A stretch of 64,000 nt of DNA from an uncultured Actinomycetes bacterium. Its GTDB lineage: Bacteria > Actinomycetota > UBA4738 > HRBIN12. Location of the stretch: NCBI GenBank assembly GCA_963704725.1, contig OY969934.1, positions 896,001 to 960,000 on the forward strand, written 5' to 3'. Under the pieces are notes generated by a model. It was not told the DNA's origin and ran no database searches. It saw only the letters and a program-made list of their open reading frames with translations. The first letter of the stretch is position 1. Each line of letters starts with the position of its first letter. Positions 13,407-61,225 of this stretch are shown piece after piece. A program made the translations under genes and the position numbers.

Positions 13407-13429
13407 CCGCCGTGGAAGCGCTCGCGGGA

Positions 13430-16400
13430 ATGCCCACGCAGGGAGCGTGCGAGCGCTGCGGCGGCGACAACTCCCCACGAGCCCGGTTCTGCCAGCACTG
13501 CGGTTCGGCGCTCCCCTGGGACGACCCGGTCGAGGGCGGCGCGCCCGGCGAGCTGGACGCGTCCCTCCCGGACGCCGGGTTCGAACCGGCCGATGCCGCC
13601 CCGATCGTGACCGCCGTCGTGTGCGAGCTCTCCGTGGAACCGGCGACGGATGGCGACGTCGATGGATGGGGCGCCGCACCCGCGCCCGAGGTCTCCCAGG
13701 AGACGCTCGACGTCGCCCGCGAGACCCTCGGTCGGTTCGGCGCGGCGGTCGAGGATCTCCCCGGCGCGGCCGACACGCTGGCGGCGGTGTTCGGGCCGGA
13801 GCCGGGGGACGGTGACGGGCCGATCATGGCCGTCCGCGCGGCCGACGAGCTCCGCCGGACCTTGGAGGGCGGCGCGGTTCGCGTCCGCGCCGGCGTGGGC
13901 ACCGCCGAGATCGTCGGCGAGGGGCGGGGCGACGAGACCCTGTGGCGGGAGCGCGTGGTGGACCTTGCGACGGGCCTGCAGCGCAGGGCGGCCGTGGGAG
14001 AGGTCATCGTGGCCGACGGCGTGCTCCGCCGGATCCACGGCGCGGCCGAGGTCGAGCCGGTCGACCCGTACGCGCGGATCGACGGGGACGGTTCCACGGG
14101 GCCGGTCCGGCTGCTCCACGTCGATCCCGATCCACCGACGGTGTGGATCGGGTGGCCGTCGCTGGCGGGACGCGACGCGGAGCGGGATCGCATCCGCTCG
14201 GCGTTCGCACGTGCCGTGGCCGAGCGGATCGGTGTGGTGGTGCGGATCTTCGGAGACCCGGGCGTGGGCAAGAGCCGGCTGGCCGAGGAGTGCCTGCGCG
14301 AGCTCTCGGCCGACGGATCGGCGCGCACGGTGTCCGTGCCGTGGGGCCCGGCAGCCGAGCCGGGCGGCCCGTCCTCGCTGGCCGCACTGGTCGAGGTGGT
14401 CGCCGGTCTCACCCCGTCCGCCGATGCCGACCGGGTGCGAGCCGGGGTGGACGGCCTGCTCGAGGGGCGCCCCGACGCCGACCGCGTGGCGGCGCGACTC
14501 CTGCCGGCCCTCGGCGTGGCCGGGGCCGCCGATGCGCAGGGGACGGGGTGGGCCCTCGGACGCTTCCTCGAGGCCGCGGCCTCGGAGCTGCCCCTGGCCG
14601 TCCTCGTGGAGGACTGCGACCGGGCGGTGCCGTGGTTCCTCGAGCTCCTTCGCTCCGCGGTCGTGCGCGCCCGGAGCCCGGTCCTGGTCCTGGCGACGGG
14701 GGCCGCCGACGGGTGGCCGACCGCATGGGAACGCGAGCCGGTCGAACAGCTCCGGATCGATCCGCTCGGTCCGGAGGCGATGGGCTCGCTCCTGAACGAC
14801 CTCCTGCTCAACCCCGACACGCCGGCATCCGCCCGCGATGCGCTGATCGCCGCCTCGCACGGCAACGCGTTGCAGGCCGAGCATCTGGTTGCGGCGCTCG
14901 TCGACCGGGGCTTCCTCCGGTGGCACCATCGCCGGTGGGTTCCCGTCGAGGATCTCGAGCTCCCCGCCCCGGACCTGCGCTCGCTCGTCTCCCTTCGCCT
15001 GCAGGACCTCGAGCCGACCGAGCGCGCCTGTCTCGGGCTGCTGGCCGTGGCCGGAGCCGAGATCCCCTCGGGGCTCGTCGAGGAGCTGGTACCGAACGAC
15101 GACGACGCCTCCATCCGCGACCGCCTGGCCTCGCTCGTCGCCAAGCGCTTCCTCCGGGCCGAGACCGACGCAGAGCAGGAGTCCTACGTCTTCCATCACG
15201 AGCTGGTGCGCGACGTCGCCCGGGCCGAGGTCCCGCCCGAGACCGGGTCCGAGGTCCACGAGCGGTGCGCGCTGTGGCTGCAGGAGCGATACGGGGCGCG
15301 GCTGTGGCGCCACGCCCAGGCGATCGCGGCTCATCTGGAGGCCGACGTGCGGTTCGGCCTTGAGCGGGGTTCGGCCGTGGGCGACGCCGGGCGCCGGGCC
15401 GCCGACTTCCTCGGCTCGACGGCGGAGATCCTCTCGGCGCTCGGCGACGAGGAGGGGAGCTTGGCGATCCTGGAGCGCGCCCCCGGACTGCTCGATCCGG
15501 ACGACCCGACCCGGGCGGGGACCCTGCTCCGCACGGCGACGGCGGTCGCCGCCTCGGGCCGGTCCACCACCGCGGATCGGCTCTCGATCCAGGCGGCGCG
15601 AGCGGCGCGCGAGACGGGGGACGGCGCGACGGACGCACGGGCGCGGCTGCTCAGGGCCGTGCTCGCGGACGGAGGACGGAGCTACGGTCGGATGGAATCG
15701 ATCTGGGAGGTCGCGGAGCAGGCCGAGATCGCCTGCCGGGACGCCGAGGACGACGCCGGCCTGTCGGAGGCATGGGCGGCCCGGGCGGCGGTCCATCGCC
15801 GATGGGGGCACTGGGCGGCCGCCGCCGACGACGCGGAACGGTCCGCGGACCACGCCGCCCGAGCCGGGCTCCTGCACGAGGAGTCCGAGGCGCTCCGGAT
15901 GCTGGTCCGGTGTCTCGAGGGATCGCCCGCGCCGATGGAGGAGTCGATCGATCGATGCCGGGCGGTGCTGGCACGGGCCGGTGGCCGGAGGCAGGTGGAA
16001 GAGGAGGCGTCCGGGGTCCTCGCGATCCTGCTGGCCCGCCACGGCTCGTTCGAGGAGGCCGAGCGGCACGTCGCCGCGGCCCGGAGCGCCGCCGAGGAGT
16101 CGGAGCCGGGGACCGGTCTCGCGCGCGCCCTGCATCGCGCCGCCGCTGTGGAGACCCTGGCGGGACGGCTCGAGCGGGCCGAGGAGCTCCTGGTGCAAGC
16201 TCGCGATGTGGCGGTCGGGTCGGCGGACGAACGGACCGGAGCGGCGATCGGCGCCACGCTCGCCCACGTGATGCTCGACGCGGGGCGCGCCGAGGAGGCT
16301 CGGCAGCTCCTGGAGGAGGTGGAGCGGACCGCGGCCGCGGACGACGTGGTCACGCAGGTGGTCTGGCGCTCGGGCCGGGCCCGGGCGCTCGCGTCCTTGG

Positions 16401-16924
16401 AGCAGACGGAACAGGCCCGTGAGCTCGCCCGCCAGGCGATCCGGCTCGCCGAGCAGACGGACCTCATGGACCTGCGGGCGCGCGCCCTGCTCGCGCTGGC
16501 CGAGGTGCTCCGGGCGGAGGGTCGCACCAACGAGGCGGCGGCGTTCGCGCGCCGCGCCCTCCGGGCGCTCGAGCGGCGGGGAGCCACGGTCCCGGCTCAG
16601 CAGGCCCGGTCGGTCCTGGCGTCGCTCGATCGTCCCGCCGCCGCGCTGCCCGACGCGCCCCCGGATGTGCCGGCGGACGGGGATCCCGGCTCGCCCGGGG
16701 ACGAGGTCCCGTCGCCCCCCGAGCCATCGGAGAGGTGGCCGAACGGCGACGCCGACGTCGTCGGTGAGGAGCCGCGGCACTCTCCGTTCGCCGACATCGC
16801 TTTCGGCGGCGGGGGCGACCGGTCACCCGAACCCGCACCCGTGCCGGCGGCCCCGGATCCGGACCCGGAGCCGAGTGGTGACGGGGCGACCTCGAGCTCC
16901 TGGTGGTCGTTCGGGAAGCGCTGA
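13430..16924 (+). CDS. double zinc ribbon + degenerate class III cyclase + STAND AAA ATPase + TPR protein
   Basis: CERC...FCQHCG; cyclase-like 'VRAGVGTAEI'; Walker A GDPGVGKSRL; 'SHGNAL'; 'YVFHHELVRDVA'; helical repeats. Confidence 0.85.
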   Translation: MPTQGACERCGGDNSPRARFCQHCGSALPWDDPVEGGAPGELDASLPDAGFEPADAAPIVTAVVCELSVEPATDGDVDGWGAAPAPEVSQETLDVARETLGRFGAAVEDLPGAADTLAAVFGPEPGDGDGPIMAVRAADELRRTLEGGAVRVRAGVGTAEIVGEGRGDETLWRERVVDLATGLQRRAAVGEVIVADGVLRRIHGAAEVEPVDPYARIDGDGSTGPVRLLHVDPDPPTVWIGWPSLAGRDAERDRIRSAFARAVAERIGVVVRIFGDPGVGKSRLAEECLRELSADGSARTVSVPWGPAAEPGGPSSLAALVEVVAGLTPSADADRVRAGVDGLLEGRPDADRVAARLLPALGVAGAADAQGTGWALGRFLEAAASELPLAVLVEDCDRAVPWFLELLRSAVVRARSPVLVLATGAADGWPTAWEREPVEQLRIDPLGPEAMGSLLNDLLLNPDTPASARDALIAASHGNALQAEHLVAALVDRGFLRWHHRRWVPVEDLELPAPDLRSLVSLRLQDLEPTERACLGLLAVAGAEIPSGLVEELVPNDDDASIRDRLASLVAKRFLRAETDAEQESYVFHHELVRDVARAEVPPETGSEVHERCALWLQERYGARLWRHAQAIAAHLEADVRFGLERGSAVGDAGRRAADFLGSTAEILSALGDEEGSLAILERAPGLLDPDDPTRAGTLLRTATAVAASGRSTTADRLSIQAARAARETGDGATDARARLLRAVLADGGRSYGRMESIWEVAEQAEIACRDAEDDAGLSEAWAARAAVHRRWGHWAAAADDAERSADHAARAGLLHEESEALRMLVRCLEGSPAPMEESIDRCRAVLARAGGRRQVEEEASGVLAILLARHGSFEEAERHVAAARSAAEESEPGTGLARALHRAAAVETLAGRLERAEELLVQARDVAVGSADERTGAAIGATLAHVMLDAGRAEEARQLLEEVERTAAADDVVTQVVWRSGRARALASLEQTEQARELARQAIRLAEQTDLMDLRARALLALAEVLRAEGRTNEAAAFARRALRALERRGATVPAQQARSVLASLDRPAAALPDAPPDVPADGDPGSPGDEVPSPPEPSERWPNGDADVVGEEPRHSPFADIAFGGGGDRSPEPAPVPAAPDPDPEPSGDGATSSSWWSFGKR

Positions 16925-16980: not shown

Positions 16981-17319
16981 TCAGCCCTCGGTTACGACGG
17001 CCGGGAGCTCGGAGACGAGCGGGTGATCGAGCCCGAGCGCGTCGAACGCCACCGCTCCGCCCGGCGCACCGAGCCCGCTGACGGTAGGACCGAAGAACTC
17101 GCGCTCGACCTGCGCGTAGTGCTGCCATTCGGGGGGCAGGTCGTCCTGGTGGAAGATCGCCGTCACCGGGCACACCGGCTCGCACGCACCGCAGTCGACG
17201 CACTCGTCGGGATGGATGTAACCCTTGCGGAGCCCGTCGTAGATGCAGTCGACCGGACACTCGTCGACGCACGACCGGTCGTGCACGTCGACACAGGGTT
17301 CCGCGATGACGTACGCCAT
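16981..17319 (-). CDS. fdxA: 7Fe ferredoxin ([3Fe-4S]/[4Fe-4S])
   Basis: 'MAYVIAEPCVDVHDRSCVDECPVDCIY...IHPDECVDCGACEPVCPV'; AAGGAGG RBS. Confidence 0.95.
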   Translation of the reverse strand: MAYVIAEPCVDVHDRSCVDECPVDCIYDGLRKGYIHPDECVDCGACEPVCPVTAIFHQDDLPPEWQHYAQVEREFFGPTVSGLGAPGGAVAFDALGLDHPLVSELPAVVTEG

Positions 17320-17527
17320 GGCGCCTCCTTTATCGGTGAGCCTTCGCAGACCACGGTAAGGGGCGGGCCGGCAACGGCATCCCAACGTGAGGCAATGGAT
17401 CGGGAAAGAACGCTCGGGACGTCAGCCCGACGCGTCGGTGACCGCGTACAGGCGCCACCCGGGTAGGCACGCCCTTGGGGGCGTGCTCGCCCCGGTCGTC
17501 GATCCCGCCGACGCCCTCGTCGCGCTC

Positions 17528-18079
17528 TCAGCCCTTGGGCCCGGGGATCCCGAGTGGTCGTCCGTTGAGGGTCGCGGTCAGGTCCGTCGGGACCGCGGTC
17601 CGGAAGGTCTGCGCCGCATGACACGCCCGCTCAGCGTGCGCGACGAGCCTGGCCACGTCCGGCTCGGGCGCGGGGCTGCGGACCTCGAGGTGGAACGTGA
17701 CGTTCTGGAACGCGCCCGGCGGACCTCCGAGATCGAACTTGTCCGCGACGCTGAACGACGCCCGCACGTCGACCTCGGCGTCCTCGATCTCGACTTCATA
17801 CAGTGGCGAAAACTTCGCCAGCTGGGTCAACAGTCAGAAGGCCGCACCCGCGACGACGTACTGCAGCGGCGCGGGAGCGAGGTCGTCGCCCCCTCGCTCG
17901 GCCGGCTCGTCCGACTCGATACGGAACCGCCCGATCCGGCCGGTCATGTGCAGGTTCCGGTCGATGCGCGCCACGGCCCGCTGGGTGAGCACCGGCACCT
18001 GCTTCGTGTGTTCGCGGCTCTCCTCGTAGGCTCGCCGCATCTTCTCCAGGTCGACCCGGCCGGTCGGCTCGTCGCCCAT
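17528..18079 (-). CDS. OsmC/Ohr-family protein with in-frame UGA at the first catalytic Cys position (probable selenoprotein, Sec82, 183 aa)
   Basis: ORFs 17834-18079 and 17528-17830 are in the same frame: '...SDEPAERGGDDLAPAPLQYVVAGAAF-UGA-LLTQLAKF...AERACHAAQTF'; GGAGGA RBS. Confidence 0.85.
17790..17830 (-). promoter_or_regulatory. bacterial SECIS-like hairpin
   Basis: After UGA: TTGAC-C-CAG-C-TGGCGAA-GTT-TTCGCCA-CTG-TATGAA-GTCGA; 7-bp upper stem, apical loop starting with G 21 nt after the UGA. Confidence 0.75.
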
Positions 18080-18234
18080 GTCGTCCTCCCCCCTCTCGAC
18101 GCGCTCACTGCGAGCGAGCAGCCTACCCCGGCGAAGGATGCCACCTGCGCGGCGGCACCCGGGCCCTCCCTTCGGACGCGGCTCGGCGGCCCCGGAAGCC
18201 CCGGCTTGACCGGCGCATGCGGCTCGTGGTTTGG

Positions 18235-18278
18235 TTGGTCTGACAAACAGGTCAGCAGACGGTCTGAGACGGTCTGAG
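18235..18278. promoter_or_regulatory. putative FadR operator array
   Basis: TTGGTCTGACAAA (FadR-type TGGTC-N-GACCA-like), palindrome CAGACGGTCTG, tandem AGACGGTCTG x2, all in the divergent osmC/fadR spacer. Confidence 0.6.
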
Positions 18279-18330
18279 TCAGTCTCGATGACCGTCCGCC
18301 GACTTCAGGGGAACTCGTCCGAACGAGGCG

Positions 18331-19059
18331 GTGGGGGTGCAGCAGCAGTTCGGGCCGATCGAGCGACGCAAGGTCTACGAGCTCGTCGCCGATCGCCTGG
18401 TCGAGGAGATCTCGGCGCGCCGGCTCAAGCCCGGCGACCCGATCCCGGCCGAGCGGCAGCTCGCGGAGACCCTGTCGGTCGGCCGCTCCTCGATCCGCGA
18501 GGCGCTCCGGATGCTCGAGTCCCGCGGCCTGATCATCTCCCTCGGCCACGGCGCCTTCACGGTGGCCGAGTATGGGAACCCGCTCAACGCGTCGCTCGCC
18601 CTGCTCGTCGAGATGCGCCACGGCGACCTGCAGGAGCTGTTCGAGGTGCGCAAGGTGCTCGAGGTCGAGATGGCCGGCATCGCGGCGGAGCGGAGGTCCG
18701 AGGTGGACCTGGAGCGCATGCGCCGGGCCATCGAGGCCATGGACGAGGGGATCGGCGTGGCCGACCGCTACATCGCCGGCGACCTCGAGTTCCACCAGGC
18801 GGTGGTGGCGGCGACCGGCAACCGGATCGCGCGCTCGGTGATGGAGGCGATCCGCGACGTGATGCGCCTCGCGCTGTTCGAGATCTACCGGATCCCCGGC
18901 AGCCCCGAGCGGTCGATGGAGCAGCATCGCCGGATCCTGGAGGCCGTCGCGCAAGGCGATCCCGATCTGGCCCGCGAACGCGTCCGCGAGCACCTGGTCC
19001 GTGTCGAGAGCGAGATCGTCGCCCCGCCGCACGCCGGGGAGGACGGGGCCGATGGCTGA
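18331..19059 (+). CDS. FadR/GntR-family transcriptional regulator
   Basis: 'LKPGDPIPAERQLAETLSVGRSSIREAL'; FCD domain 'DLEFHQAVVAATGN...QHRRILEAV'. Confidence 0.95.
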   Translation: MGVQQQFGPIERRKVYELVADRLVEEISARRLKPGDPIPAERQLAETLSVGRSSIREALRMLESRGLIISLGHGAFTVAEYGNPLNASLALLVEMRHGDLQELFEVRKVLEVEMAGIAAERRSEVDLERMRRAIEAMDEGIGVADRYIAGDLEFHQAVVAATGNRIARSVMEAIRDVMRLALFEIYRIPGSPERSMEQHRRILEAVAQGDPDLARERVREHLVRVESEIVAPPHAGEDGADG

Positions 19060-19933
19060 GCTCGGGTTCGTCGGGCTCGGAGTGATGGGGGGGCGGATCG
19101 CCAAACGCCTCCTCGACGCCGGACACCGCGTCACCGGCTTCAACCGCACGGCCTCCCGGGCCGCCTGGCTCGTCGACGCGGGGATGACGCCGGCCCGTTC
19201 GCCGCGGGAGGCGGCCGAGGCGGCCGACATCACGTTCTCGATGGTGACGAACACGACCGCGCTCAGGGCCGTCGTCGGCGGGCCGGACGGCGTCGTTGCG
19301 GGGCTCGGCCCCGGGAAGCTCTACGTCGACATGAGCACCGTGAGCCCGGCCGAGAGCCGGGAGATCGCGGGGCACGTCGCGGAGACCGGCGCCCGGATGC
19401 TCGACGCGCCGGTCTCCGGGAGCGTCGTCACGCTGGAGGAGGGCCGGCTGTCGATCATGGTCGGCGGCGAGGCCGAGGACGTCGAGCGCGCGATGCCGGT
19501 GCTCCACGACATCGGTCCCAAGGTGACGCACGTCGGCGGCAACGGCCAGGCGGCGCTCATGAAGATCGCCTCGAACCTGAACCTGGCCGTGCAGATGGTC
19601 GCGTTCAGCGAGGCGGTCCTGCTGGCCGAGAAGGGGGGCATCGCCAGGGAGACCGCGGTCGAGGTCCTCGTGAACAGCGTGATCGCCTCGCCGATGGTCA
19701 AGTACCGCGGCCCCTTCGTCCTGCGGGAGCCGGACGAAGCGTGGTTCGACGTGAACATGATGCAGAAGGACCTGCTCCTCGCGCAGGAGGCGGGGCGCCG
19801 GCAAGACGTCGTGCTGCCGACCACCGCTGTGGCGAACGAGCTGCTCACGGCGGCGCGCGCGATGGGACTCGAGAAGCACGACTTCGCGATCGTGTTCGAC
19901 GTGCTCGCGCACCTGTCGGGGACGAAGCGGTGA
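19052..19933 (+). CDS. beta-hydroxyacid dehydrogenase (3-hydroxyisobutyrate/tartronate semialdehyde reductase family)
   Basis: 'GFVGLGVMGG', 'DMSTVSP', 'LDAPVSGS', 'MKIASN', 'QKDL'. Confidence 0.92.
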   Translation: MAELGFVGLGVMGGRIAKRLLDAGHRVTGFNRTASRAAWLVDAGMTPARSPREAAEAADITFSMVTNTTALRAVVGGPDGVVAGLGPGKLYVDMSTVSPAESREIAGHVAETGARMLDAPVSGSVVTLEEGRLSIMVGGEAEDVERAMPVLHDIGPKVTHVGGNGQAALMKIASNLNLAVQMVAFSEAVLLAEKGGIARETAVEVLVNSVIASPMVKYRGPFVLREPDEAWFDVNMMQKDLLLAQEAGRRQDVVLPTTAVANELLTAARAMGLEKHDFAIVFDVLAHLSGTKR

Positions 19934-20925
19934 GCGACGTCCGGGAGCGCGAGGGGATCGGCTCCCTCTCGCGGGACGACGCGGTCCGGCTCTACGAGCA
20001 GATGGCTCGGATCCGCCACTTCGAGCTCCGCGTGAACCAGCTCTACCTGTCCGCGAAGATGCCCGGCCTGGCGCACCTGTATGCGGGGCAGGAGGCCGTG
20101 GCCGTGGGGGTGTGCAGCGTGCTCGGACCGCAGGACGTCATCACCAGCACCCACCGGGGCCACGGGCACTGCCTGGCCAAGGGCGCCGCCGTGGACCGCA
20201 TGTTCGCCGAGCTCCTCGGCAAGGCCGACGGCTACTGCGGGGGCAAGGGCGGCTCGATGCACATCGCGGATCCCGAGACCGGCAACCTGGGCGCCAACGC
20301 CATCGTGGCCGGCAGCACCGGCATCGCCACCGGCGCGGCGCTGTCGGCCCTTCGCCGGGGGACCGGGGGCGTCGCCGTCTGCTTCTTCGGGGAGGGCGCC
20401 CTCGGCCAGGGCGTGCTCTACGAGGTGATGAACATGGCCTCGCTGTGGAAGCTGCCGGTCCTCTACGTCTGCGAGAACAACCTCTACAACGAGTACACGC
20501 ACTATCGCGAGACCACGGCCGGCGAGGTCCTGGCACGCGCCCGGGCGTTCGGGATCCCGGCCGAGTCCGTCGATGGCCAGGACGTGCTCGCCGTGCGCGC
20601 GGCCGCATCGGTGGCCGTGGAGCGGGCTCGCGCCGGCGACGGTCCCTCCTTCCTGGAGTGCCGGACGTATCGCACCTTCGGCCATCACGTCGGCGACGTG
20701 GACCGCGCCTACTACCGCTCCAAGCAGGAGGAGGAGACCTGGCGCACCGAGCGCGACCCCATCGCCCTGCTCGGCGAGCGCCTTCGCGAGGGGGGCGCCG
20801 CCGACGAGGCCTCGCTCCGCGAGCTCGACGAGCGGGTCGCGGCCGAGGTCGCCGCCGGCGAGCGGTTCGCGCTCGATGCTCCGTACCCCGATCCCTCAGA
20901 GGTGGACCGCGATGTCCACGCCTAG
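19930..20925 (+). CDS. TPP-dependent dehydrogenase E1 alpha subunit (AcoA/PdhA-like)
   Basis: 'HLYAGQEA', 'STHRGHGH', 'GKGGSMH', TPP motif 'GEGA...ENN'. Confidence 0.92.
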   Translation: MSDVREREGIGSLSRDDAVRLYEQMARIRHFELRVNQLYLSAKMPGLAHLYAGQEAVAVGVCSVLGPQDVITSTHRGHGHCLAKGAAVDRMFAELLGKADGYCGGKGGSMHIADPETGNLGANAIVAGSTGIATGAALSALRRGTGGVAVCFFGEGALGQGVLYEVMNMASLWKLPVLYVCENNLYNEYTHYRETTAGEVLARARAFGIPAESVDGQDVLAVRAAASVAVERARAGDGPSFLECRTYRTFGHHVGDVDRAYYRSKQEEETWRTERDPIALLGERLREGGAADEASLRELDERVAAEVAAGERFALDAPYPDPSEVDRDVHA

Positions 20926-21943
20926 CCGCGTGCAGGACGTCGCCGCGACGGGCGCGCGCGAGCTCACGTTCGCCGAGGCGGTCCGCGAGGCCCTGCAGCA
21001 GGAGCTCCGCCGGGACGAGCGCGTGTTCGTGATGGGCGAGGACGTCGCCGAGGCCGGGACGCCGTTCAAGGTGCTCTCTGGCCTCGTCGAGGAGTTCGGC
21101 ACCGGCCGGGTGATCGACTCGCCGATCTCCGAAGCCGGGATCACCGGGATCGGGGTGGGGGCGGCCATGACGGGGATGCGCCCGGTGATCGACATCATGT
21201 TCGGCGACTTCCTGACGCTGGCGATGGACCAGCTCGTGAACCAGGCCGCCAAGGTCCACTACATGTCCGGCGGCAAGCTGCGGGTGCCGATGGTGGTGCG
21301 CACCACGCTGGGAGCCACCCGGCGCTCGGCCGCCCAGCACAGCCAGAGCCTGCACGCCTGGGTGAGCCACGTCCCCGGGCTCAAGGTGGCCCTTCCCGCC
21401 ACCCCGGCCGACGCCAAGGGGCTGCTCGTCTCGGCGATCCGCGACGAGGGGCCGGTGGTGATCTTCGAGGACAAGATGGACTACCAGGTCCGCGGCCCGG
21501 TTCCCGAGGGCGACGGCGCCATCCCCCTCGGCGTGGCCGAGGTCAAACGAGCCGGAACCGACGTCACGGTCGTGGCGACCTCCAGCATGGTCCGCGTGGC
21601 CCTCGCCGCCGCCGAGCTGCTCGAGCCCGAGGGGATCTCGCTCGAGGTGATCGACCCCCGGACGACCTCCCCGCTCGACGCCGAGACCCTGGTCGCCTCG
21701 GCGCGGAAGACCGGCCGGGCCATCGTGGTCGACGAGGGGTACCGCCGGTACGGGGTGACGTCGGAGCTCGCGTCGGTGATCGCCGAGGGCGCGTTCTACG
21801 ACCTGGACGCGCCGGTCCGCCGCCTGGGGGCCATGGACGTGCCGATCCCGTTCTCCCCGGTGCTGGAGGACCTCACCGTGCCCACGCCAGAGCTCGTCGC
21901 CGCCGCCGCCCGGGAGCTCTGCGGCGCCGGAGGGGGTGCCTGA
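20912..21943 (+). CDS. TPP-dependent dehydrogenase E1 beta subunit
   Basis: 'MGEDV', 'DSPISEAG', 'NQAAK', 'AAQHSQS'. Confidence 0.93.
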   Translation: MSTPSRVQDVAATGARELTFAEAVREALQQELRRDERVFVMGEDVAEAGTPFKVLSGLVEEFGTGRVIDSPISEAGITGIGVGAAMTGMRPVIDIMFGDFLTLAMDQLVNQAAKVHYMSGGKLRVPMVVRTTLGATRRSAAQHSQSLHAWVSHVPGLKVALPATPADAKGLLVSAIRDEGPVVIFEDKMDYQVRGPVPEGDGAIPLGVAEVKRAGTDVTVVATSSMVRVALAAAELLEPEGISLEVIDPRTTSPLDAETLVASARKTGRAIVVDEGYRRYGVTSELASVIAEGAFYDLDAPVRRLGAMDVPIPFSPVLEDLTVPTPELVAAAARELCGAGGGA

Positions 21944-21945
21944 TC

Positions 21946-23103
21946 GTGGCCACCGAGGTGATCATGCCGGCGCTCGGCGTGTCGCAGGAGACGGGCCGTG
22001 TCCTTCGGTGGCTGAAGGCGGCCGGGGACGAGGTCGCCGCCGGCGAGCCGGTGGTGGAGATCGAGACCGACAAGGTCACGGTGGAGATGGAGTCTCCCGC
22101 GGCCGGGGTGCTCGCCGAGATCCAGGCGACGGAGGGCCAGGACGTGCCCGTCGGCCAGGTGATCGGGCTGATCCTTCAGCCGGGGGAGAGCCCACCCGAG
22201 CGGTCCGTCGCCGCGCCCGCGGGCGACGGGCCCGGCGGCGCGCGGCGGTCGATCGCCCCCGCCGCGTCGGCGAGTGGAGCCGGCGCGCGCGCGGCGGGGA
22301 CCGGCCGCGCGGCGGCATCGCCGCTCGCCCGGCGGCGGGCAAAGGAGGCGGGGATCGACCTCGGCGACGTGCTCGGCTCGGGCCCGGGCGGGGCGGTGAC
22401 GGCGGCAGACCTGGATGCCGCGATCGCGGCCATCGCGCCGAGCGGGGAGACGGCCGAGGCGAGCCCGACGTGGCGGCGCATGGCCGAGCACGTCAGCGCC
22501 TCGTGGGTCGCGCCGCACTTCTCCCTCTCGCGGGACGTGGACGCCGGGGCCCTCCTGTCCCGGCGGGCGGAGCTCGGCGAGGAGGTCACGCTCACGGATC
22601 TCCTGGTGTGGGTCTCGGCAGGCGCGCTCGAGCGGCACCCCGAGGTGAACGCTCGGTGGGAGGACGGCGCGGTGCGCCGGGTGGCCGAGGTGAACGTGGG
22701 GATCGCGGTGGCGCTCGACGACGGGCTGATCGTCCCCGTCGTCCGCGACGCGAACCGCCTGGACGTCCACGGGCTCGCCGAGCGGCGGCGGGACCTGGTC
22801 CATCGCGCGCGCGCCGGGTCCCTGCGGCCCGAGGACGTGCAGGAGGGGACGTTCACGATCAGCAATCTCGGGATGTACGGCGTCGACTCGTTCACGGCGA
22901 TCGTGAACGGGCCGCAGGCCGCGATCCTGGCCGTGGGCCGGGTCGCGGACCGAGTGGTGGCGGTGCAGGGGCATCCGGTCGTCCGCCCCCGGATGCAGCT
23001 CACGCTGTCGTGCGACCACCGCGTGGTCGACGGCGCGCGAGCGGCCCGGTTCCTCGACACGTTGTCGATGGCGGTGGAGGAGCCGTCACGGCTCGAGCCG
23101 TGA
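21946..23103 (+). CDS. dihydrolipoamide acyltransferase E2
   Basis: Lipoyl site 'IETDKVT', binding domain 'ASPLARRRA', catalytic 'DHRVVDGA'. Confidence 0.93.
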   Translation: MATEVIMPALGVSQETGRVLRWLKAAGDEVAAGEPVVEIETDKVTVEMESPAAGVLAEIQATEGQDVPVGQVIGLILQPGESPPERSVAAPAGDGPGGARRSIAPAASASGAGARAAGTGRAAASPLARRRAKEAGIDLGDVLGSGPGGAVTAADLDAAIAAIAPSGETAEASPTWRRMAEHVSASWVAPHFSLSRDVDAGALLSRRAELGEEVTLTDLLVWVSAGALERHPEVNARWEDGAVRRVAEVNVGIAVALDDGLIVPVVRDANRLDVHGLAERRRDLVHRARAGSLRPEDVQEGTFTISNLGMYGVDSFTAIVNGPQAAILAVGRVADRVVAVQGHPVVRPRMQLTLSCDHRVVDGARAARFLDTLSMAVEEPSRLEP

Positions 23104-23155: not shown

Positions 23156-24424
23156 ATGCGCGCGTGGCCCAGGCTGGTTGCCGCGTTCGCGGTGCTGATG
23201 CTCCTCGCGGCGGCGTGCAGCAGCGACGACGACGGCGGCGGGGCCACGGGGGCGACGGAGGCGACCGGAGGCACCACCGCGACCGGTTCGTCCGGGCCCT
23301 CGGGCGAGCCGATCAAGATCGGCATCTCGCTGCCGCTGACGGGGGACTTCTCGCAGCCCGGCGGTGAGGCGGAGCGTGGCTACCGGGTGTGGGCGGACCT
23401 GACGAACGCGGCCGGCGGCATCCTGGGGCGCCCGGTCGAGCTGGACATCGTGGACGACGCGAGCAGCCAGGACACCGTGGTCACCGACTACAACCGGCTG
23501 ATCACCCAGGACAACGTGGACCTGCTGCTCGGGACGTTCTCCTCGCTGTTGAACATCCCGGCGTCGGCCGTCGCCGAGCGCAACCAGATGGTCTACGTCG
23601 AGCCGGCCGGCGGCTCTCCGGACCTGTTCGACGACGGGTACGAGTTCCTGTTCTTCGCCCAGCAGGCGACGGCGCCGCATCAGGCGGACAAGTTCGTGGA
23701 GTGGGTCCTCTCGCTCCCCGAGGACCAGCGGCCGACGACGGCCGCCTATCCGTCGCAGGACGACCCGTTCGCGCTGCCGGTGATCGAGAGCATCCGTGAC
23801 CAGCTCACCGATGCCGGGATCGAGAACGTGTACGAGAACGTGTACCCGCCGGACACGACGAACTTCGACACGATCGCCAACGACATCCAGTCGAGCGGCG
23901 CGGAGCTCGTCGCGCAGGGCGCCGTCTTCGAGGACGGCGTCGGGCTCGTCCGGTCCTTCCAGCGGATCGACTACAACCCGCAGGTCCTGTTCCAGACCTC
24001 GGCGCCATCCAACAGCGATCAGTACGCCGAGGGGATCGGGGCCGACAACACGGAGGGGATCTTCTACGCGGTGAGCTGGCACCAGGACACGGACACGCCG
24101 CAGAACGCCGACTTCGTGGCGGGCTACGACGCGGCCTACGGCGGGATCCCCGCCGAGGACGCCGCCGACGCCTTCGCATCGGCGCAGGTGCTCCAAGCGG
24201 CGGTCGAGGCGGTCGGAAGCCTCGACCAGGTGGCGATCAAGGACTGGCTGCACGCGAACACCGTGGACACGGTGCTCGGACCGCTGTCTTGGGACGAGAC
24301 GGGCGCCCCGCAGGGGGAGTTCCTGCTCGCGCAGTGGCAGGGGGGCCAGGCCGAGATCGTCCTGCCGGCGGAGGTCGCGACGACCGACACGATCGTGAAC
24401 CCCAAACCGGAGTGGGCGTCCTGA
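23156..24424 (+). CDS. LIV-type (branched-chain amino acid family) ABC substrate-binding lipoprotein
   Basis: Lipobox 'LAAAC'; 'PIKIGISLPLTG', 'NAAGGILGRPVEL'. Confidence 0.92.
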   Translation: MRAWPRLVAAFAVLMLLAAACSSDDDGGGATGATEATGGTTATGSSGPSGEPIKIGISLPLTGDFSQPGGEAERGYRVWADLTNAAGGILGRPVELDIVDDASSQDTVVTDYNRLITQDNVDLLLGTFSSLLNIPASAVAERNQMVYVEPAGGSPDLFDDGYEFLFFAQQATAPHQADKFVEWVLSLPEDQRPTTAAYPSQDDPFALPVIESIRDQLTDAGIENVYENVYPPDTTNFDTIANDIQSSGAELVAQGAVFEDGVGLVRSFQRIDYNPQVLFQTSAPSNSDQYAEGIGADNTEGIFYAVSWHQDTDTPQNADFVAGYDAAYGGIPAEDAADAFASAQVLQAAVEAVGSLDQVAIKDWLHANTVDTVLGPLSWDETGAPQGEFLLAQWQGGQAEIVLPAEVATTDTIVNPKPEWAS

Positions 24425-24455
24425 GTCGACGACCGGGAACGGAGGAGGTGGGTCG

Positions 24456-25337
24456 ATGACCCACCTCCTCCAGACCGTGCTGCTGGGGCTGCTGATCGGC
24501 GGCGTCTACGCGCTGCTCGCGTCCGGGCTCACGCTCATCTTCGGCGTGATGCGGATCATCAACGTGGCCCACGGCGCGTTCCTCGTGCTCTCGGCGCTGT
24601 TCACGTACGAGCTGTGGCGGCACCTGGGACTGGATCCGCTCGTCGCGGTGGTGATCACCACCCCGGCGATGTTCGCGATCGGCTGGCTCGTCTACCGCGG
24701 GCTCATCGCCCGCATCCGCACGGCGCCGGTCTCGATGTCCGTCCTGCTCACCTTCGCGCTCGCCATCACGCTCGAGGGCATCATGGGCATGACCTGGAAG
24801 AACCGCTTCCGCTCGGTCACGCCCGGTTACTTCAACGATTCGTTCCACGTCGGTTCGTTCTTCATCCCGAAGCCGCATCTATTCGGCTTCGGGATGGCGG
24901 CCGTGGTGCTCCTCGCGCTCTACCTGCTCCTGACGCGGACGTGGGCGGGGCGCGCCATCCGCAGCGCGTCGGAGAACCCGGAAGGAGCCCAGCTCGTCGG
25001 CGTCGACATCCGGGCGGTCGCGGCGCTGACGTTCGCGGTCGGCATCGCGACGACGGGCGCGGGGGGGTCGATCCTGTCCGTGCTCTACGCGTTCTTCCCG
25101 GCCTCGCACTACCAGTGGATCTCGCGGCTGCTCGGGATCGTGGTGCTCGGCGGGATGGGGAGCATCCCGGGGGCGGTGATCGCGGCGCTCGTGCTGGGCG
25201 TCACCGAGACGCTCACCGTCGACTACGTCTCCCCGCGGTGGGGCGTGGCCGTCTTCTATGTGGTCATCCTGCTCGTGCTGCTCGTGCGGCCCCGCGGCCT
25301 GCTGGGCGCGCGGCTCCGGGAGGACGTGGCCGCGTGA
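24456..25337 (+). CDS. LivH-type ABC permease
   Basis: '[26 protein letters not shown]', 'GRAIRS', 'VVLGGMGS'. Confidence 0.93.
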
Positions 25338-27148
25338 GACGGGCGACGGCGCTCCGGCGCGGGCTGATCGGGCTCGTCGCCCTCGGGCTCGTCGTGTTCC
25401 CGATCCTGCAACCCGAGGACCTGTACCGACAGACGGTGCTGATCTTCATCTTCGTGCTCGGGACGATGGCGGTGGGGTGGAACGTGATCGCCGGGTTCAC
25501 GGGCTACGTCTCGCTCGGGCAGAGCGCGTTCCTCGGGCTGGGCGCGTACACCACCGGGATCCTGTCGCAGCACGTCGACATCTCTCCGTTCTATCTCGTG
25601 CCTCTGGGCGGCATCGTGGCCGCGGTCGTCGCGGCGCTGCTCGGCCTGACGATCATGCGGTCGCGCGAGCACGCCTTCGTGATCAGCACGATCGCGTTCC
25701 TGTTCCTGATGCAGGCCGTCGCGTTGAACTGGCGCGGGTTCACCGGCGGCTCGAACGGGATCCGTCTCCCGTTGCCCGGCTACGATTTCGCGCTCGGGCA
25801 CCTCCCGTTCTACCTCGCCAGCCTGGGCCTGCTCGCGCTCTCGGTGCTGATGGCGTGGTGGATCCGCCGGACGAAGCTCGGGGCCGGGCTCCTGGCGATC
25901 CGCGAGGACGAGGACAAGGCGGCGGCGATCGGCGTGCGCACGACCGTCTACAAGATCCTCGCCTTCGTGGCCAGCGCCGTGCTGACCGGCATGGCCGGTG
26001 GGGTGTACGCCTACTTCCTCACGTTCATCGACCCCCGGGGGATGTTCGACATCCTGGCGAGCGTGCAGATCGTGCTGGCGTGTCTCCTCGGGGGGCGCGG
26101 CACGATCTGGGGCCCGGTCATCGGCGCGTTCGTCATCATCCCGCTGAACGAGGTCACGGTGGACGTGGCTTCGGGCGAGGGGGTGCGCCTGTTCGTGTTC
26201 GGTCTGGCGCTGCTCCTGGTCGTGCTGTTCCTGCCGCGCGGCGTGATCCCGACGATCCGCACGGCGATCGAGCGGCGCCGGGGCGGGGCGGTGCCCTTCG
26301 AGCGGAGATCGCCGGTCCCCGCGGCCGCGCCCACCATCGCCGCGGCTCCGCCCACCATCGCCGCGGCTCCGCCGCAGCCGGTCCGGCCGCTGCTCGAGAT
26401 CGAGGGCCTTGCCCGGCGCTTCGGCGGCGTCACCGCCGTCGACGGGTGCTCGTTCGGCGTCCGCGAGGGCAGCCTCACGGCGCTCATCGGGCCGAACGGA
26501 TCGGGCAAGACGACGGTCTTCAACCTCGTCACGGGGATGATGCGCGCCGACGGCGGCGCGATCCGGCTCGACGGCCGGCGCATCGACGGCATGCTGCCGT
26601 GGGACCGCGCCTACCTCGGGCTGGGGCGCACGTTCCAGATCACGAGGCTCTTCCCGCAGATGACCGTGCTCGAGAACGTCGTCGCCCCGCTCCGGGGGTT
26701 CCGGTGGCGCGACCTGGCGGCGGACGCCGTCGGGGGGCCGGAGGCCCGCCGTGCCGAGGAGCTCCTCGGCTTCGTGGGGATGGCCGACTTCTCGCACCAG
26801 CCGGCGTGGCGGCTCTCGTTCGGCCAGCAGAAGCTCGTCGAGCTGGCGCAGACGCTCATGCTCGAGCCCCGGCTCATCCTTCTCGACGAGCCGGCGGGCG
26901 GCGTGAACCCCGGGATGATCGACCGGATGTGCGACCTGATCCGCGAGCTGAACCGGGGCGGGGTCACGTTCCTGATCGTCGAGCACAACATGCCGGTGGT
27001 GCTGGATCTGTGCGATCCGATCCTCGTCATGGCGCGGGGCGCCGTGATCGCCGAGGGCGCGCCGCGCGAGATCCAGAGCGACCGCGGCGTCCTCGAGGCG
27101 TACCTCGGCGAGGCGTGGGGCGGCGCGCCACAGCCGACGGGGGTGTGA
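25334..27148 (+). CDS. fused LivM permease - LivG ATPase
   Basis: '[15 protein letters not shown]' permease, then 'GPNGSGKT', 'LSFGQQK', 'LLDEP'; GTGA overlap with the upstream gene. Confidence 0.92.
26330..26371 (+). repeat. 21-bp tandem repeat x2 in the LivM-LivG linker
   Basis: CCCACCATCGCCGCGGCTCCG repeated twice (PTIAAAP). Confidence 0.8.
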
Positions 27149-27915
27149 TGGCGGCGTTCCTCGAGCTCCGCGACGTCGACGCCGGGTACGCCGGCGCGCT
27201 CGTCCTTCGCGGCGTCGGTCTCGACGTGCAGCGCGGCCGCATCACCTGCGTGATCGGGCCGAACGGAGCGGGCAAATCGACCCTGCTGAAGGCGATCAGC
27301 GGGGTCGTGAGGGCGACGCGCGGGCGCATCGCGCTCGACGGCTCGCCGATCGAACGGCTGTCGGCGGGCGAGGTCCTCTCGCGCGGGGTCGTCCAGGTTC
27401 CGCAGCAGCGGGCGCTGTTCCCCAACCTCACGATCCGCGAGAACGTGTTGATGGGCGCGTACATCCTGCGCCGTGACGCGTCGCTGGTGCGCGAGCGATA
27501 CCGGCGCGTCGAGGAGACGATCCCCCTCGTCGCCGAGCGCGCCGACGAGCGGGCCGGGAACCTGTCCGGCGGGCAGCGACGCGCCGTGGAGTTCGCCCGG
27601 AGCCTCATGCTCGACCCGACCCTCGTACTGCTCGACGAGCCCTCGCTCGGCCTCGACCCGAAGGCCCTGGCTCAGGTGTGGGAGCTGATCACCGGGATGC
27701 GCGACGCCGGCCGGACGATCCTGCTCGTCGAGCAGAACGTGCGCCTCGGGTTGGGGGTGGCCGACGACGGCGTGGTGATGGAGGGCGGCTGCGTCCGCCT
27801 CACCGGAACGGCCGCGGACGTGCTCGCCAACCCGGAGATCGCCGACCTCTACCTGGGCGGCACGACCCGGCACCCGGTGGACGCGCCGCCGGCCGCGGAG
27901 CCCACGCGCGGATGA
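27148..27915 (+). CDS. LivF-type ABC ATP-binding protein
   Basis: 'GPNGAGKST', 'LSGGQRR', 'LLDEPSLGL', 'VEQN'. Confidence 0.93.
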
Positions 27916-28832
27916 GCGGCGTGCTCTGGGCGGCGATCGCCGGCGTGCTGTTCGGCGTGTTCCAGAGCGTGAACCGGGCGGCGCTCGTCGAGCTCGACGT
28001 GTTCGCGTCGACGTTCCTCCAGCTGCTCGTCGCCTCCGCGTTCATGGTCGTCGCGCTGCTGATCCAGGGCGTGGACGTGGTCGCCTCCGCGCCCGGGAGC
28101 GCGTGGGTGAACTTCACGATCGCCGGCCTCGTCCACTTCCTGATCGGCTGGACGCTGATCAACCTCAGCCAGAAGCGGCTGGGGGCGGCGCGGACGAGCC
28201 CGCTGCTCGCGACGTCGCCGCTCTTCGGCACGCTGATCGCCGCCGCGACGCTGGACGAGACGCCGTCCGCCGTCGAGCTGGCCGGCATCGCGCTGATCGT
28301 CGCCGGCGTCTACGTCGCTCAGCTCGAGCGGGCGCGGAGGGTGCCGGTGCCGGCGGGCGCGGCGGCACCCTCGACGGAGCACCGACACGAGGCCACGTTC
28401 CGCGCCTCGCTGTTCGGGCTCGGGGCGGCCCTCGCGGTTTCGGTGAGCCCGATCTTCATCCGCCGGGGGCTGGAGGACGTCGACAACCCGGTGCTCGGCG
28501 TCACGATCGGCGTGGTCGTCGCCACGATCGCCTACGGGCTCGTGTTGCTCGCGCGCCGGCCGAGGGCCCGGCTCCTGTCGGCGTCGCGGCGGGCGCTCTC
28601 GTGGAAGGCGGTCGCCGGGGTGCTCGTCGCGTTCGGGACGTGGACGCGCTGGTACGCCCTCGGCCGGACCTCGGTCGCGGCCGTGCTCGCGCTCGCGCTC
28701 CTGTCGGTGCCGACCGTGATCGTTCTGGCGCCGATGGCCGCCGGTCGGCACCTCGAGCCGATCACCGCACCGATCGTGGCCGGGTCGGCGTTCGTCGTCG
28801 CCGGGGCGCTCGTGCTGATCGCGACGGGGTGA
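27912..28832 (+). CDS. EamA/DMT-family transporter
   Basis: About 10 TM helices in two repeats; '[16 protein letters not shown]'. Confidence 0.85.
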
Positions 28833-28839
28833 GGGCGAC

Positions 28840-29832
28840 GTGATCGTCGACATCCACGCGCACGTCATCGTCCCGGAGATCACCCGGGAGTCCGGGGGCG
28901 ACGAGCCGTGGCGCCCCTCGGTCCGCTGGGAGGACGGCGCCCAGGTGGTCGAGCTCGGCGGGCGGGCCATCCGCTCGGCCGTGCGCGAGTTCGTCCGCAT
29001 CGACCGAGTGCTGGAGCAGGAGGCGGGTTCGGGCGTCGAGCACGTTGTGCTGTCCCCGTGGGTCAACCTCCTCCCCTACGGGCTCGACCCCGCCGAGGCG
29101 CTCGAGGTCTGCCGGCTGCAGAACGACGCGCTCTCCGCAGCCGCCGCCGCGCATCCGGGGCGGGTGAGCGCGCTCGCGGCCGTTCCGCTGCAGGAGCCGG
29201 AGCTCGCGGCCGGCGAGCTCGAGAAGGCCATGGGCACGCCGGGGGTGGTCGGCGCGGAGGTCGCGGCGAGCGTTCGCGGCGCGTACCTGGGGGACGACCG
29301 GTTCCTCCCGTTCTGGGAGGCCGCAGAGGCGACCGGCGCGCTCGTGCTCGTGCATCCCACGACGAAGGGGTTCGACCTGCCGGTGTTCGGCGAGTCCTAT
29401 CTCTGGAACACGGTGGCCAACCCGCTCGAGACGGCGGTGACGGGCGCCCACCTCGTGATGGCCGGCGTGCTCGAACGGCACCCCCGGCTCCGGATCGTGC
29501 TCGCGCACGGAGGGGGGGCGCTGCTCGCCGTCCGGGGACGGCTCCGGCACGCCCACAGGTTCCAGCCGCAGGCCCGGTCGAGGCTCCGCGAGTCCCCCGA
29601 CGACTCGTTGCGGCGCCTGCACTACGACACCGTGACGCACGATGCCGACCTGCTGCGCGCGCTCGTCGGGTACGCCGGCGCCGGCCACGTGCTGCTCGGG
29701 TCGGATCACCCCTTCGACATGGGGACGTCCCGCCCCGTGGACGAGGTCCGCGCGCTCGGCCTTCCGGCGGAGGACGAGGCCGCGGTGCTGGGCGGCAACG
29801 CCGAGCGGCTCTTCGGGGTGGGGGGGACGTGA
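28840..29832 (+). CDS. ACMSD/LigW-like amidohydrolase-fold decarboxylase/hydratase
   Basis: 'DIHAH', 'AAVPLQ', 'LVHP', 'AHGGG', 'LGSDHPFDMG'. Confidence 0.9.
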   Translation: MIVDIHAHVIVPEITRESGGDEPWRPSVRWEDGAQVVELGGRAIRSAVREFVRIDRVLEQEAGSGVEHVVLSPWVNLLPYGLDPAEALEVCRLQNDALSAAAAAHPGRVSALAAVPLQEPELAAGELEKAMGTPGVVGAEVAASVRGAYLGDDRFLPFWEAAEATGALVLVHPTTKGFDLPVFGESYLWNTVANPLETAVTGAHLVMAGVLERHPRLRIVLAHGGGALLAVRGRLRHAHRFQPQARSRLRESPDDSLRRLHYDTVTHDADLLRALVGYAGAGHVLLGSDHPFDMGTSRPVDEVRALGLPAEDEAAVLGGNAERLFGVGGT

Positions 29833-31415: not shown

Positions 31416-32469
31416 ACGCATCGAGGCCGCGATCGCGAACTGGGCGCCGCGGTTCACGTCGCAAGGGGTCGACCCGAACGACTTCGCGCGGGTCACGGCG
31501 CCGTTGGAGCGATGGGACGAATGGCTCGATGCCTGGTGCGCGAACGGCGATCTGCACGCGGGGCTCGCGCGCGAGGCCGAGGAACGCGGCCGAACCCTCA
31601 CGGCCGGCGAGGCGTGGGTCCGCGCCACGCTCTCGTACCACTTCGCGAAGTTCGTGTGGATGGTCGACATGGACCGGTACCGCTCCGCTGCCGACCGTTC
31701 CGTCGCAGCGCTGCGCGAGGCGCACCGCCTCCTCGACCCGTCCGCCGAGCGCATCGAGGTGCCGTTCGAGGGCGGAGCGATGGTGGGCAACCTGCGGCGC
31801 CCGGCGGGGATCGACCGGCCGCCGCTCGTGCTCCTGCTCCCCGGGCTCGACTCCACCAAGGAGGAGTTCTTCACGTGGGAGGACGTGTTCCTCGCCCGGG
31901 GCATGGCCACCCTGTCGCTCGACGGCCCGGGGCAGGGCGAGACCGGCTACCACACGCACATCCGGGCCGACTACGAGGTCGGGCCGATCGCGATGCTCGA
32001 TCACCTCGCGGGGCGCGGCGACGTGGACGTCGAGCGGGTGGGGGCGGTGGGCGTCTCGCTCGGCGGCTACTACGCGCCGCGGACCGCGGCGTTCGAGCCG
32101 CGGGTGAAGGCCGTGTGCTCGATCGGCGGGCCGCACACGTTCGGCGAGTTCTTCGACGATCGGCCCTCGCTGACGAAGGAGACGTTCGTGCATCACAGCG
32201 GGGCGAAGGACCTCGAGGAGGCCAAGCGCATCGCCGACACCCTGACGCTCACCGACGTGCTGCCGAAGGTCGACCAGCCGTTCCTGGTGATCTTCGGCCG
32301 GCTCGACCGCCTGATCCCGTACCAGCACGCCGAGCGGGTTGCGGCGGAGGCCCCGAACGCGGAGCTCGTGATGTACGCGGAGGGGAACCACGTCTGCAAC
32401 AACATCCCCTACAGGTACCGCCCGCTGGCCGGCGACTGGATGGCCGAGCGCCTCGCCGGCGGGTCGTGA
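31405..32469 (+). CDS. alpha/beta hydrolase, 2,6-dihydroxypseudooxynicotine hydrolase-like
   Basis: 'GLDSTKEE', 'DGPGQGE', nucleophile 'GVSLGGYY', 'GNHVCNN'. Confidence 0.85.
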   Translation: MPDERIEAAIANWAPRFTSQGVDPNDFARVTAPLERWDEWLDAWCANGDLHAGLAREAEERGRTLTAGEAWVRATLSYHFAKFVWMVDMDRYRSAADRSVAALREAHRLLDPSAERIEVPFEGGAMVGNLRRPAGIDRPPLVLLLPGLDSTKEEFFTWEDVFLARGMATLSLDGPGQGETGYHTHIRADYEVGPIAMLDHLAGRGDVDVERVGAVGVSLGGYYAPRTAAFEPRVKAVCSIGGPHTFGEFFDDRPSLTKETFVHHSGAKDLEEAKRIADTLTLTDVLPKVDQPFLVIFGRLDRLIPYQHAERVAAEAPNAELVMYAEGNHVCNNIPYRYRPLAGDWMAERLAGGS

Positions 32470-32479
32470 TCGCCGCCAC

Positions 32480-36206: not shown

Positions 36207-36429
36207 CGCGGGACTCCTTTCCAGGGTCGGCTCATCTGTTCGACCCACATCGAGGACCGGACTCATCGGTCGTGCCAGCTTGACGAAACGGACGGTCGAT
36301 CTGTGACGGCCGTCCGGTTTCGTCCCTCGGCAACCTCCGAGCCGTTCGACGAGCGGGCGTCGCCGAGCCTATCGAACGAAGGTCGGATCACGGGACGCGA
36401 TCTCGACCTGCGGGGTAGCTTCCGCGGCA

Positions 36430-61174: not shown

Positions 61175-61192
61175 CGATCTCCCTTTCTTTTG

Positions 61193-61225
61193 CACCTGAG
61201 TCCTCGCTTCGCGAGGTCTCAGGTG
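61193..61225. repeat. intergenic REP-like stem-loop
   Basis: CACCTGAG-T-CCTCGC-TTC-GCGAGG-T-CTCAGGTG inside an operon. Confidence 0.6.

Follow-up and report, generated by a model that had tools for sequence, protein, structure and literature searches.

A selenocysteine-containing OsmC protein beside an E1/E2 operon without neighbouring E3, in a shuffled catabolic island of an uncultured actinomycete

In a stretch of 64,000 nucleotides from an uncultured Actinomycetes bacterium (GenBank assembly GCA_963704725.1, contig OY969934.1, positions 896,001 to 960,000), hereafter the window, an operon for the E1 and E2 components of a 2-oxoacid dehydrogenase complex is divergent from the gene of an OsmC-related selenoprotein (OsmC_Se), and no gene for the third component, E3 (dihydrolipoamide dehydrogenase, Lpd), is present. 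The genome (G000) is a single contig (C1) of 3.45 Mb, the window corresponding to C1:896001-960000 with about 72% GC. From this arrangement, a first-pass annotation had proposed that the selenoprotein could re-oxidise E2 in place of E3, or draw on catabolic flux to remove peroxide. The analysis reported here points elsewhere: the E1/E2 complex is probably served by the Lpd shared across the genome, with OsmC_Se acting as a redox helper of the surrounding catabolic island as a whole. While a looser functional tie of the selenoprotein to the island is supported, replacement of E3 is not supported, and both the E1/E2 operon and the selenoprotein belong to known kinds.

The operon opens with a GntR-family regulator (18331-19059, + strand; GntR 66.1 bits, FCD 108.9 bits), whose winged helix-turn-helix and FCD domains place it in the GntR/FadR subfamily. 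There follow a β-hydroxyacid dehydrogenase of the HIBADH / tartronate-semialdehyde-reductase family (19052-19933, +; NAD_binding_2 165.7 bits, NAD_binding_11 78.3 bits), which scores under every NCBIfam equivalog cut-off, the thiamine diphosphate (ThDP)-dependent dehydrogenase E1 α (19930-20925, +; E1_dh 249.1 bits), E1 β (20912-21943, +; Transket_pyr 153.8 bits, Transketolase_C 134.3 bits) and the E2 acyltransferase (21946-23103, +). In E2, domain matches and motifs delineate a lipoyl domain (ETDK, with K43), a peripheral subunit-binding domain (E3_binding/PSBD, 46 bits) and a catalytic domain (DHRVVDG). From gntR to E1 β, each start overlaps the preceding stop (ATGGCTGA, GTGA and a 14-nt overlap), the HIBADH start overlapping the gntR stop and GTGA being the E1 α start over the HIBADH stop, and these genes therefore make up one operon. 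Of note, the HIBADH-family gene had been left unmentioned in the first-pass annotation.

With both ThDP-dependent E1 subunits and a complete E2, the locus belongs to the α2β2 2-oxoacid dehydrogenase complexes of the pyruvate dehydrogenase (PDH) type. It resembles those PDH-type complexes whose lpd lies elsewhere, as E1 α, E1 β and a complete E2 are encoded together and lpd is found at a distant locus. Unlike PDH proper, E1 α (333.7 bits against TIGR03182, cut-off 393.85) and E2 (292.2 bits against TIGR01349, cut-off 445) remain under the PDH equivalog cut-offs, and the HIBADH-like gene precedes them in a catabolic island; the subfamily model NF006667, which E1 β passes (381.6 bits, cut-off 321), is the sole PDH-type NCBIfam model passed. 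With the HIBADH-like gene in the operon and a catabolic setting around it, housekeeping pyruvate is unlikely to be the substrate. The PDH-like E1 would decarboxylate a small 2-oxo acid arising from the pathway of the island, and E2 would carry the resulting acyl group on lipoyl-K43 before handing it to CoA.

Regarding E3, none of the 18 TIGR01350 matches of the genome falls inside C1:896001-960000; together with the domains and motifs, this search bears out what had been annotated at first, namely E1 α, E1 β and an intact E2 with no lpd in the window. A canonical lpd is nonetheless encoded 0.8 Mb from the window operon (C1:1721922-1723280; TIGR01350 479.4 bits, cut-off 408.8), directly upstream of another set of E1/E2 genes at 1.718-1.723 Mb, in the order lpd, E1 α, E1 β, E2. 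The genome holds three E2 genes and five full E1 α genes, and two of its three E1/E2 operons are without lpd, that of the window included; the other one, at 0.661-0.664 Mb (E1 α, E1 β, E2), has no OsmC gene beside it. A canonical lpd is also present in all four island-bearing relatives (G003, G021, G030 and G039), each time on a contig different from that of the island. Since most of the E1/E2 operons are E3-less, one of them with no OsmC gene, and since lpd lies elsewhere in the relatives, one shared Lpd is the simplest reading. It is common for one Lpd to serve several 2-oxoacid dehydrogenase complexes. On the simplest reading, the E3-less state of the cluster is ordinary, Lpd being encoded elsewhere and presumably shared: the dihydrolipoyl arm of the window complex would be re-oxidised by the canonical Lpd 0.8 Mb away, which would also serve the third, lpd-less operon.

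The proposal that the complex has no E3 partner at all, OsmC_Se re-oxidising dihydrolipoyl-E2 with hydroperoxide possibly made stoichiometrically by oxidases of the island, has to be weighed against these data. It accords with the lack of lpd in the window, on the island contigs of the relatives and in 80 loci fetched around OsmC homologues (mostly from metagenome-assembled genomes, MAGs, of Candidatus Dormibacterota and Ktedonobacterales/Chloroflexota, and queried with the window proteins by tblastn at E <= 1e-10), as well as with the presence of a Sec-containing OsmC in most islands. The canonical lpd in every island genome tested (G000 and the four relatives), the second lpd-less operon devoid of OsmC and the E1/E2 islands in which no Sec-OsmC was detected (G448, G450, G021) make it hardly credible; besides, a catabolic flux could hardly be expected to consume one hydroperoxide per catalytic cycle. 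The distribution of OsmC_Se laid out below speaks against E3 replacement too, as the gene tracks a FrsA-like hydrolase (10 of 11 genomes), abuts a molybdenum-hydroxylase gene and is divergent from gntR in this genome only. In the literature searched on OsmC, dihydrolipoyl, the PDH complex and peroxide, and on Dormibacter and selenocysteine, no description of OsmC replacing E3 was found.

The selenoprotein itself is well established. Its gene (17531-18079, −; terminal stop TGA at 17528-17530) encodes 183 residues scoring 146.8 bits against NF041052 (cut-off 95) and 49.8 bits against Pfam OsmC; searched on the raw genome, the NF041052 model (OsmC_like_Se) gives 138.4 bits with one TGA. This in-frame TGA (17834-17836, −), read as selenocysteine (Sec) at residue 82 in the motif U-L-L-T, is conserved in homologous loci: of the 73 in which the motif was recognised, 71 have TGA in the Sec column and two have TGC, one additional TGA being found by pattern match in L066, and the protein is conserved on either side (context AAF-U-LLTQ; alignments A1 and A3). 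UGA-82 would be decoded through a conserved selenocysteine insertion sequence (SECIS)-like hairpin with a GUU loop (17801-17824, −), identified by comparative alignment, the stem of which begins 14 nt 3' of the UGA as GGCG(AA/CG)-GUU-(UU/CG)CGCC. The six-pair core with its GUU loop is found in all 72 aligned sequences, and in 25-26 sequences two of its base pairs have changed on both sides in a compensatory manner. Folded by itself, the hairpin of the window is not significant (z = -1.35), which is why the comparative alignment was needed. The genome also encodes the Sec machinery, namely selA (472 bits), selB (293 bits), selD (376 bits) and tRNA-SeC. The Sec-OsmC recognised in the first pass is real on these three counts, i.e. 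conserved TGA, covarying hairpin and decoding machinery, and it belongs, as a genuine selenoprotein, to the curated family NF041052, hence to an already known kind.

A selenoprotein family named 'OsmC-like protein' and marked by a UxxT motif, with which the U-L-L-T of the window protein agrees, was predicted early on (Zhang, Fomenko and Gladyshev 2005, PMC1088965) and is listed again in PMC13188914. The window copy passes the same cut-off, carries Sec at the position of the first redox Cys and has its SECIS 3' of the UGA; Cys and Sec forms both exist in the family and nothing essential differs in this copy, which, unlike the other NF041052 loci examined, lies beside a gntR-E1-E2 operon. Of note, NF041052-type proteins are miscalled in public gene models (P0003-P0005, P0037-P0049): many entries are C-terminal fragments of 100-103 residues starting right after the TGA, and JGI models put W at the Sec column.

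At the residue level, positions 82 (C82) and C153 are invariant in alignment A3, as are R34, R48, E58, R106, E150 and R151. U82 and C153 fall on the two Cys of PDB 3cje and also align to the Pfam OsmC model, so that the Cys pair of the fold is present, and Sec82 and Cys153 may form a selenenylsulfide redox pair. A search of solved-structure sequences returned the structural-genomics OsmC-like protein 3cje (66.7 bits), with Ohr/OsmC chains reaching only 20-37 bits against the family profile, and no function can therefore be transferred from these structures. OsmC_Se would most likely be a hydroperoxide reductase or another redox helper for the whole island.

Concerning gene neighbourhoods, 33 of the 80 OsmC loci have at least 8 kb on each side. 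Matches to window proteins were obtained for the Liv ATPase/permease in 28 of the 80 loci, the molybdenum-hydroxylase large subunit in 21, the FrsA-like hydrolase in 20, LivH and Amidohydro_2 in 15 each, the substrate-binding protein (SBP) in 13, HIBADH in 12, E1 α in 9, E2 in 5, E1 β in 4, ferredoxin in 3 and GntR in 2. E1/E2 genes were encountered in 11 of the 80 loci (7 of the 33 with long flanks), and any island marker within 10 kb of OsmC_Se in 49 (25 of the 33). These neighbourhoods fall into at least three different groups. In group A, the closest Dormibacterota clade, 0-130 nt separate the end of the open reading frame (ORF) of the molybdenum subunit from OsmC_Se in 12 loci (L051, L054-L057, L059, L060, L062, L063, L110, L111, L113), and a TrmB regulator, an SDR and an amidohydrolase come after OsmC_Se. 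In group B, OsmC_Se adjoins the FrsA-like hydrolase; the Liv transporter comes next, followed by HIBADH-E1 α about 10 kb off, and a 10-kb flank consequently undercounts E1/E2; in G429:C91, for instance, the order is HIBADH, E1 α, E1 β, E2, two FrsA-like genes, Liv and OsmC_Se, with a gap of 12.9 kb between E2 and OsmC_Se.

The divergent OsmC/gntR arrangement was seen in none of the 80 loci and not in G039, i.e. only in the window genome. This singularity, the score of NF041052 above cut-off in a single one of the 41 genomes of the order (a tally that, like the search for E2 orthologues, takes in the unpublished genomes G029 and G037, where genome searches for these features found neither island nor TGA-OsmC and which support no other claim) and the diversity of neighbourhoods across the family would fit an accidental adjacency, in which OsmC_Se would be a general stress gene that came to lie by gntR together with a ferredoxin copy and is functionally unrelated to the island. 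Such an accident is improbable, as island markers surround most OsmC_Se genes, two non-orthologous Sec-OsmC types occur in one island, and OsmC_Se comes with the FrsA-like gene in 10 of 11 genomes.

The genes at 18.3-23.1 kb would form the front of one GntR-controlled catabolic operon running into a Liv-type ABC importer (23156-27915, +), made of a binding protein (23156-24424; Peripla_BP_6 210 bits) followed by permeases and ATPase (BPD_transp_2, ABC_tran), and into further catabolic genes, the whole making up an island of about 17 kb that is shuffled and patchy in its distribution. The distal part (27678-34771, +), collinear with G039, G030 and G003, comprises an EamA transporter, an Amidohydro_2 protein, a CrtI/amine-oxidase-like FAD oxidoreductase (about 29850-31415, +), the FrsA-like hydrolase (31405-32469, +) and an orphan molybdenum-hydroxylase large subunit (32480-34771, +). 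Orthologues of E2, with 61% identity or more against 43% for the next best match, were retrieved from 4 of 40 relatives and those of E1 β from 3 of the 401 genomes of a phylum-wide sample, and the island is therefore rare and patchy. The notion of same-genus relatives that have the operon and no OsmC is inapplicable, since the whole island is rare.

Where contigs allow, the islands of G039, G030, G003 and G021 are collinear with the window and read (gntR), HIBADH, E1 α, E1 β, E2, SBP, LivH, LivMG, EamA, Amidohydro_2, then FAD oxidoreductase, FrsA-like, (M24/creatinase-like), OsmC and molybdenum subunit. In the window, 10 bp separate the FrsA-like gene from that of the molybdenum subunit and no OsmC gene intervenes; the NF041052-type gene is found instead at the opposite end of the island, next to gntR. 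In G039, the region upstream of gntR holds neither OsmC nor ferredoxin; with OsmC placed elsewhere in the relatives, the divergence of OsmC and gntR is therefore peculiar to the window genome, where it would stem from a rearrangement. In G021, the gntR-to-LivH part is present, as is an orthologue of the molybdenum subunit with a cupin gene in front of it, and no TGA-OsmC was detected on the short contigs of this genome.

A second lineage sample consisted of 61 relatives of G429; these genomes are MAGs of unknown completeness, and related ones are not independent. An E1 β orthologue was found in 9 of these 61, OsmC_Se above cut-off and with TGA in 11, and a FrsA-like orthologue in 13. OsmC_Se and E1 β occur together in 7 genomes, E1 β only in two (G448, G450) and OsmC_Se only in four (G459, G464, G487, G490); OsmC_Se is accompanied by the FrsA-like gene in 10 genomes, and the latter is present in all 9 E1 β genomes. 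In the three group A genomes G430-G432, OsmC_Se is present and E1 β only paralogous (48-50% identical). Sec-OsmC and E1/E2 homologues lie on one contig in G030, G039, G429, G447 and G466. The association of OsmC_Se with E1/E2 is real, but it goes through a common, shuffled catabolic island and is broken in both directions; it is looser than the tie to the FrsA-like hydrolase (7 against 10 of 11 genomes) and to the molybdenum subunit. The co-occurrence of OsmC with E3-less E1/E2 clusters, expected in the first-pass annotation, thus held in 7 of 9 E1 β genomes and on five shared contigs and failed in 4 of 11 OsmC_Se genomes; likewise, homologous loci lack lpd (0 of 80) as anticipated, but E1/E2 islands without Sec-OsmC do exist (G448, G450, G021).

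A milder coupling deserves consideration, in which the dihydrolipoyl arm of the co-induced E2 reduces OsmC_Se and Lpd handles bulk re-oxidation, that is a known lipoyl-dependent peroxidase system equipped with Sec. In other bacteria, lipoylated E2 (SucB) and Lpd reduce Ohr and OsmC, and this published system needs Lpd rather than replacing it (PMC5384416, PMC4486171). The first-pass annotation was right that Ohr/OsmC proteins are reduced by lipoylated E2; with this system in print, an OsmC_Se fed by E2 would be no undescribed coupling, contrary to what had been put forward. With the Ohr/OsmC lipoyl-dependent hydroperoxide reductases, the window protein shares the OsmC fold (PF02566), the Cp/Cr redox residues and a lipoylated E2 encoded nearby; it differs by its only distant relation to them and by Sec instead of the first Cys. 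In the mycobacterial AhpC-AhpD-DlaT(E2)-Lpd relay, the lipoyl arm of E2 also feeds a peroxidase adaptor. That relay is Lpd-dependent as well and uses AhpD/AhpC, not OsmC, and no AhpD or AhpC was seen here.

The shared regulatory region fits such a coupling. The divergent OsmC-gntR spacer of 251 bp (18080-18330), already pointed out in the first pass, is confirmed and contains repeats at 18233-18276, a tandem of AGACGGTCTG in two copies plus half-palindromes of the GGTCTGAC type (GTCTGAC-type), which are operator-like and could constitute a putative operator; a single GGTCTGA occurs in G039, 79 bp ahead of its gntR orthologue. A scan of the spacer for sigma-70 promoters found none, and it thus gives no indication of how a promoter and the repeats would overlap. 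Lying beside gntR, OsmC_Se may fall under the same regulator, co-regulation being suggested by the layout of the spacer. Besides the precedent and the spacer, the co-occurrence in E1 β genomes, the five shared contigs and two conceivable peroxide sources, the amine-oxidase/CrtI-like flavoprotein of the island and a BBE-type oxidase in the window, are in keeping with an E2-fed selenoperoxidase. Set against this, OsmC_Se is closer to the FrsA-like gene (10 of 11) and to the molybdenum subunit (12 loci) than to E1/E2, 4 of 11 OsmC_Se genomes have no E1 β orthologue and any cellular lipoyl protein could be the donor, which leaves this coupling unlikely, if worth keeping in mind. The BBE/FAD_binding_4 oxidase (34830-36266, −) is convergent with the molybdenum subunit and has homologues in only 2 of the 80 OsmC loci.

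Several points weigh against a shared Lpd combined with an island-wide role of OsmC_Se, which nonetheless stays the favoured reading. Both the service of the window complex by the distant Lpd and the peroxidase activity of NF041052 proteins are inferred. In α2β2-type complexes, E1 too is bound by the PSBD of E2, and retention of this domain in the window is for that reason no proof of E3 use. No Lpd was found by tblastn in any of the 80 OsmC loci, as the idea of E3 replacement predicts, and OsmC_Se in 7 of the 9 E1 β genomes of the 61-genome sample amounts to strong co-occurrence. Finally, some of the genomes with OsmC only or E1 only may reflect MAG incompleteness.

A second OsmC-type selenoprotein accompanies the island in relatives. 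The islands of G039, G030 and G003 carry a TGA-containing OsmC of another type (L123:15804-16286, +; L122 about 3560-4060, −; L124 about 3380-3935, +), only 24-30% identical to that of the window, with the motifs LVALCA-U-TNV and ARYCPV and 52-70 bits against NF041052, under its cut-off. This second type seems to be outside any curated selenoprotein model. Its gene has the FrsA/M24 genes on one side and the molybdenum subunit on the other. One Sec-OsmC or another recurs in the island, two non-orthologous genes taking that place. In G039 and G003, the second type directly precedes the molybdenum subunit (L123:16288-18582), which is thereby translationally coupled to either Sec-OsmC type, i.e. 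in the 12 group A loci and in these two genomes. The molybdenum subunit of the window is best matched in NCBIfam by glyceraldehyde dehydrogenase alpha (687 bits, under the cut-off of 790), and no [2Fe-2S] or FAD subunit gene is found near it, the closest Fer2_2 match being more than 100 kb away. One could imagine that OsmC-type selenoproteins are dedicated redox partners of this orphan subunit, taking its electrons on the selenenylsulfide or removing its O2-derived peroxide, and that in the window genome the partner was relocated next to the gntR-E1-E2 operon of the same island and might be recycled there by dihydrolipoyl-E2; such a partnership is quite improbable.

Downstream of the selenoprotein gene lies a 7Fe-type ferredoxin, FdxA (16984-17319, −; NF045480 FdxA_Actino, 158.8 bits, cut-off 125). 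The gap of about 208 bp and a terminator-like hairpin between the OsmC and ferredoxin genes (17414-17430, −; a consensus match only) mean that the ferredoxin need not be co-transcribed with OsmC_Se. A second FdxA-type gene occurs in the genome at C1:1235119-1235433, about 2 kb from an Lpd paralogue (C1:1237577-1238917; 348 bits, under cut-off). The ferredoxin was rejected as a conserved partner of OsmC, with homologues in 3 of the 80 loci, some 6 kb off, and being a second copy behind the terminator-like hairpin. Next to the ferredoxin gene, a regulator-like protein of 1170 residues with double zinc ribbon, AAA_16 ATPase and TPR is encoded at 13412-16924 (+), ending 57 bp before the end of the ferredoxin gene. 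At the other side of the window, a further cluster (57326-63980, −) contains E1 α (maximal ORF 62233-63585) and E1 β (maximal ORF 61271-62833), with neither E2 nor E3, flanked by an M24 peptidase, Amidohydro_1, a cupin, an SDR and another HIBADH-like gene.

In terms of biology, what had been raised as a possible new, E3-free closure of the 2-oxoacid dehydrogenase cycle becomes a routine case of E3 encoded elsewhere. The locus also illustrates how gene callers split or mis-translate OsmC-type selenoprotein genes. The functional lead it offers for an as yet uncharacterised selenoprotein family lies in the recurrence of OsmC_Se and of a second Sec-OsmC in one mobile catabolic island, with partners that can be tested, the most tightly linked being the FrsA-like hydrolase and a molybdenum subunit devoid of its usual electron-transfer partners.

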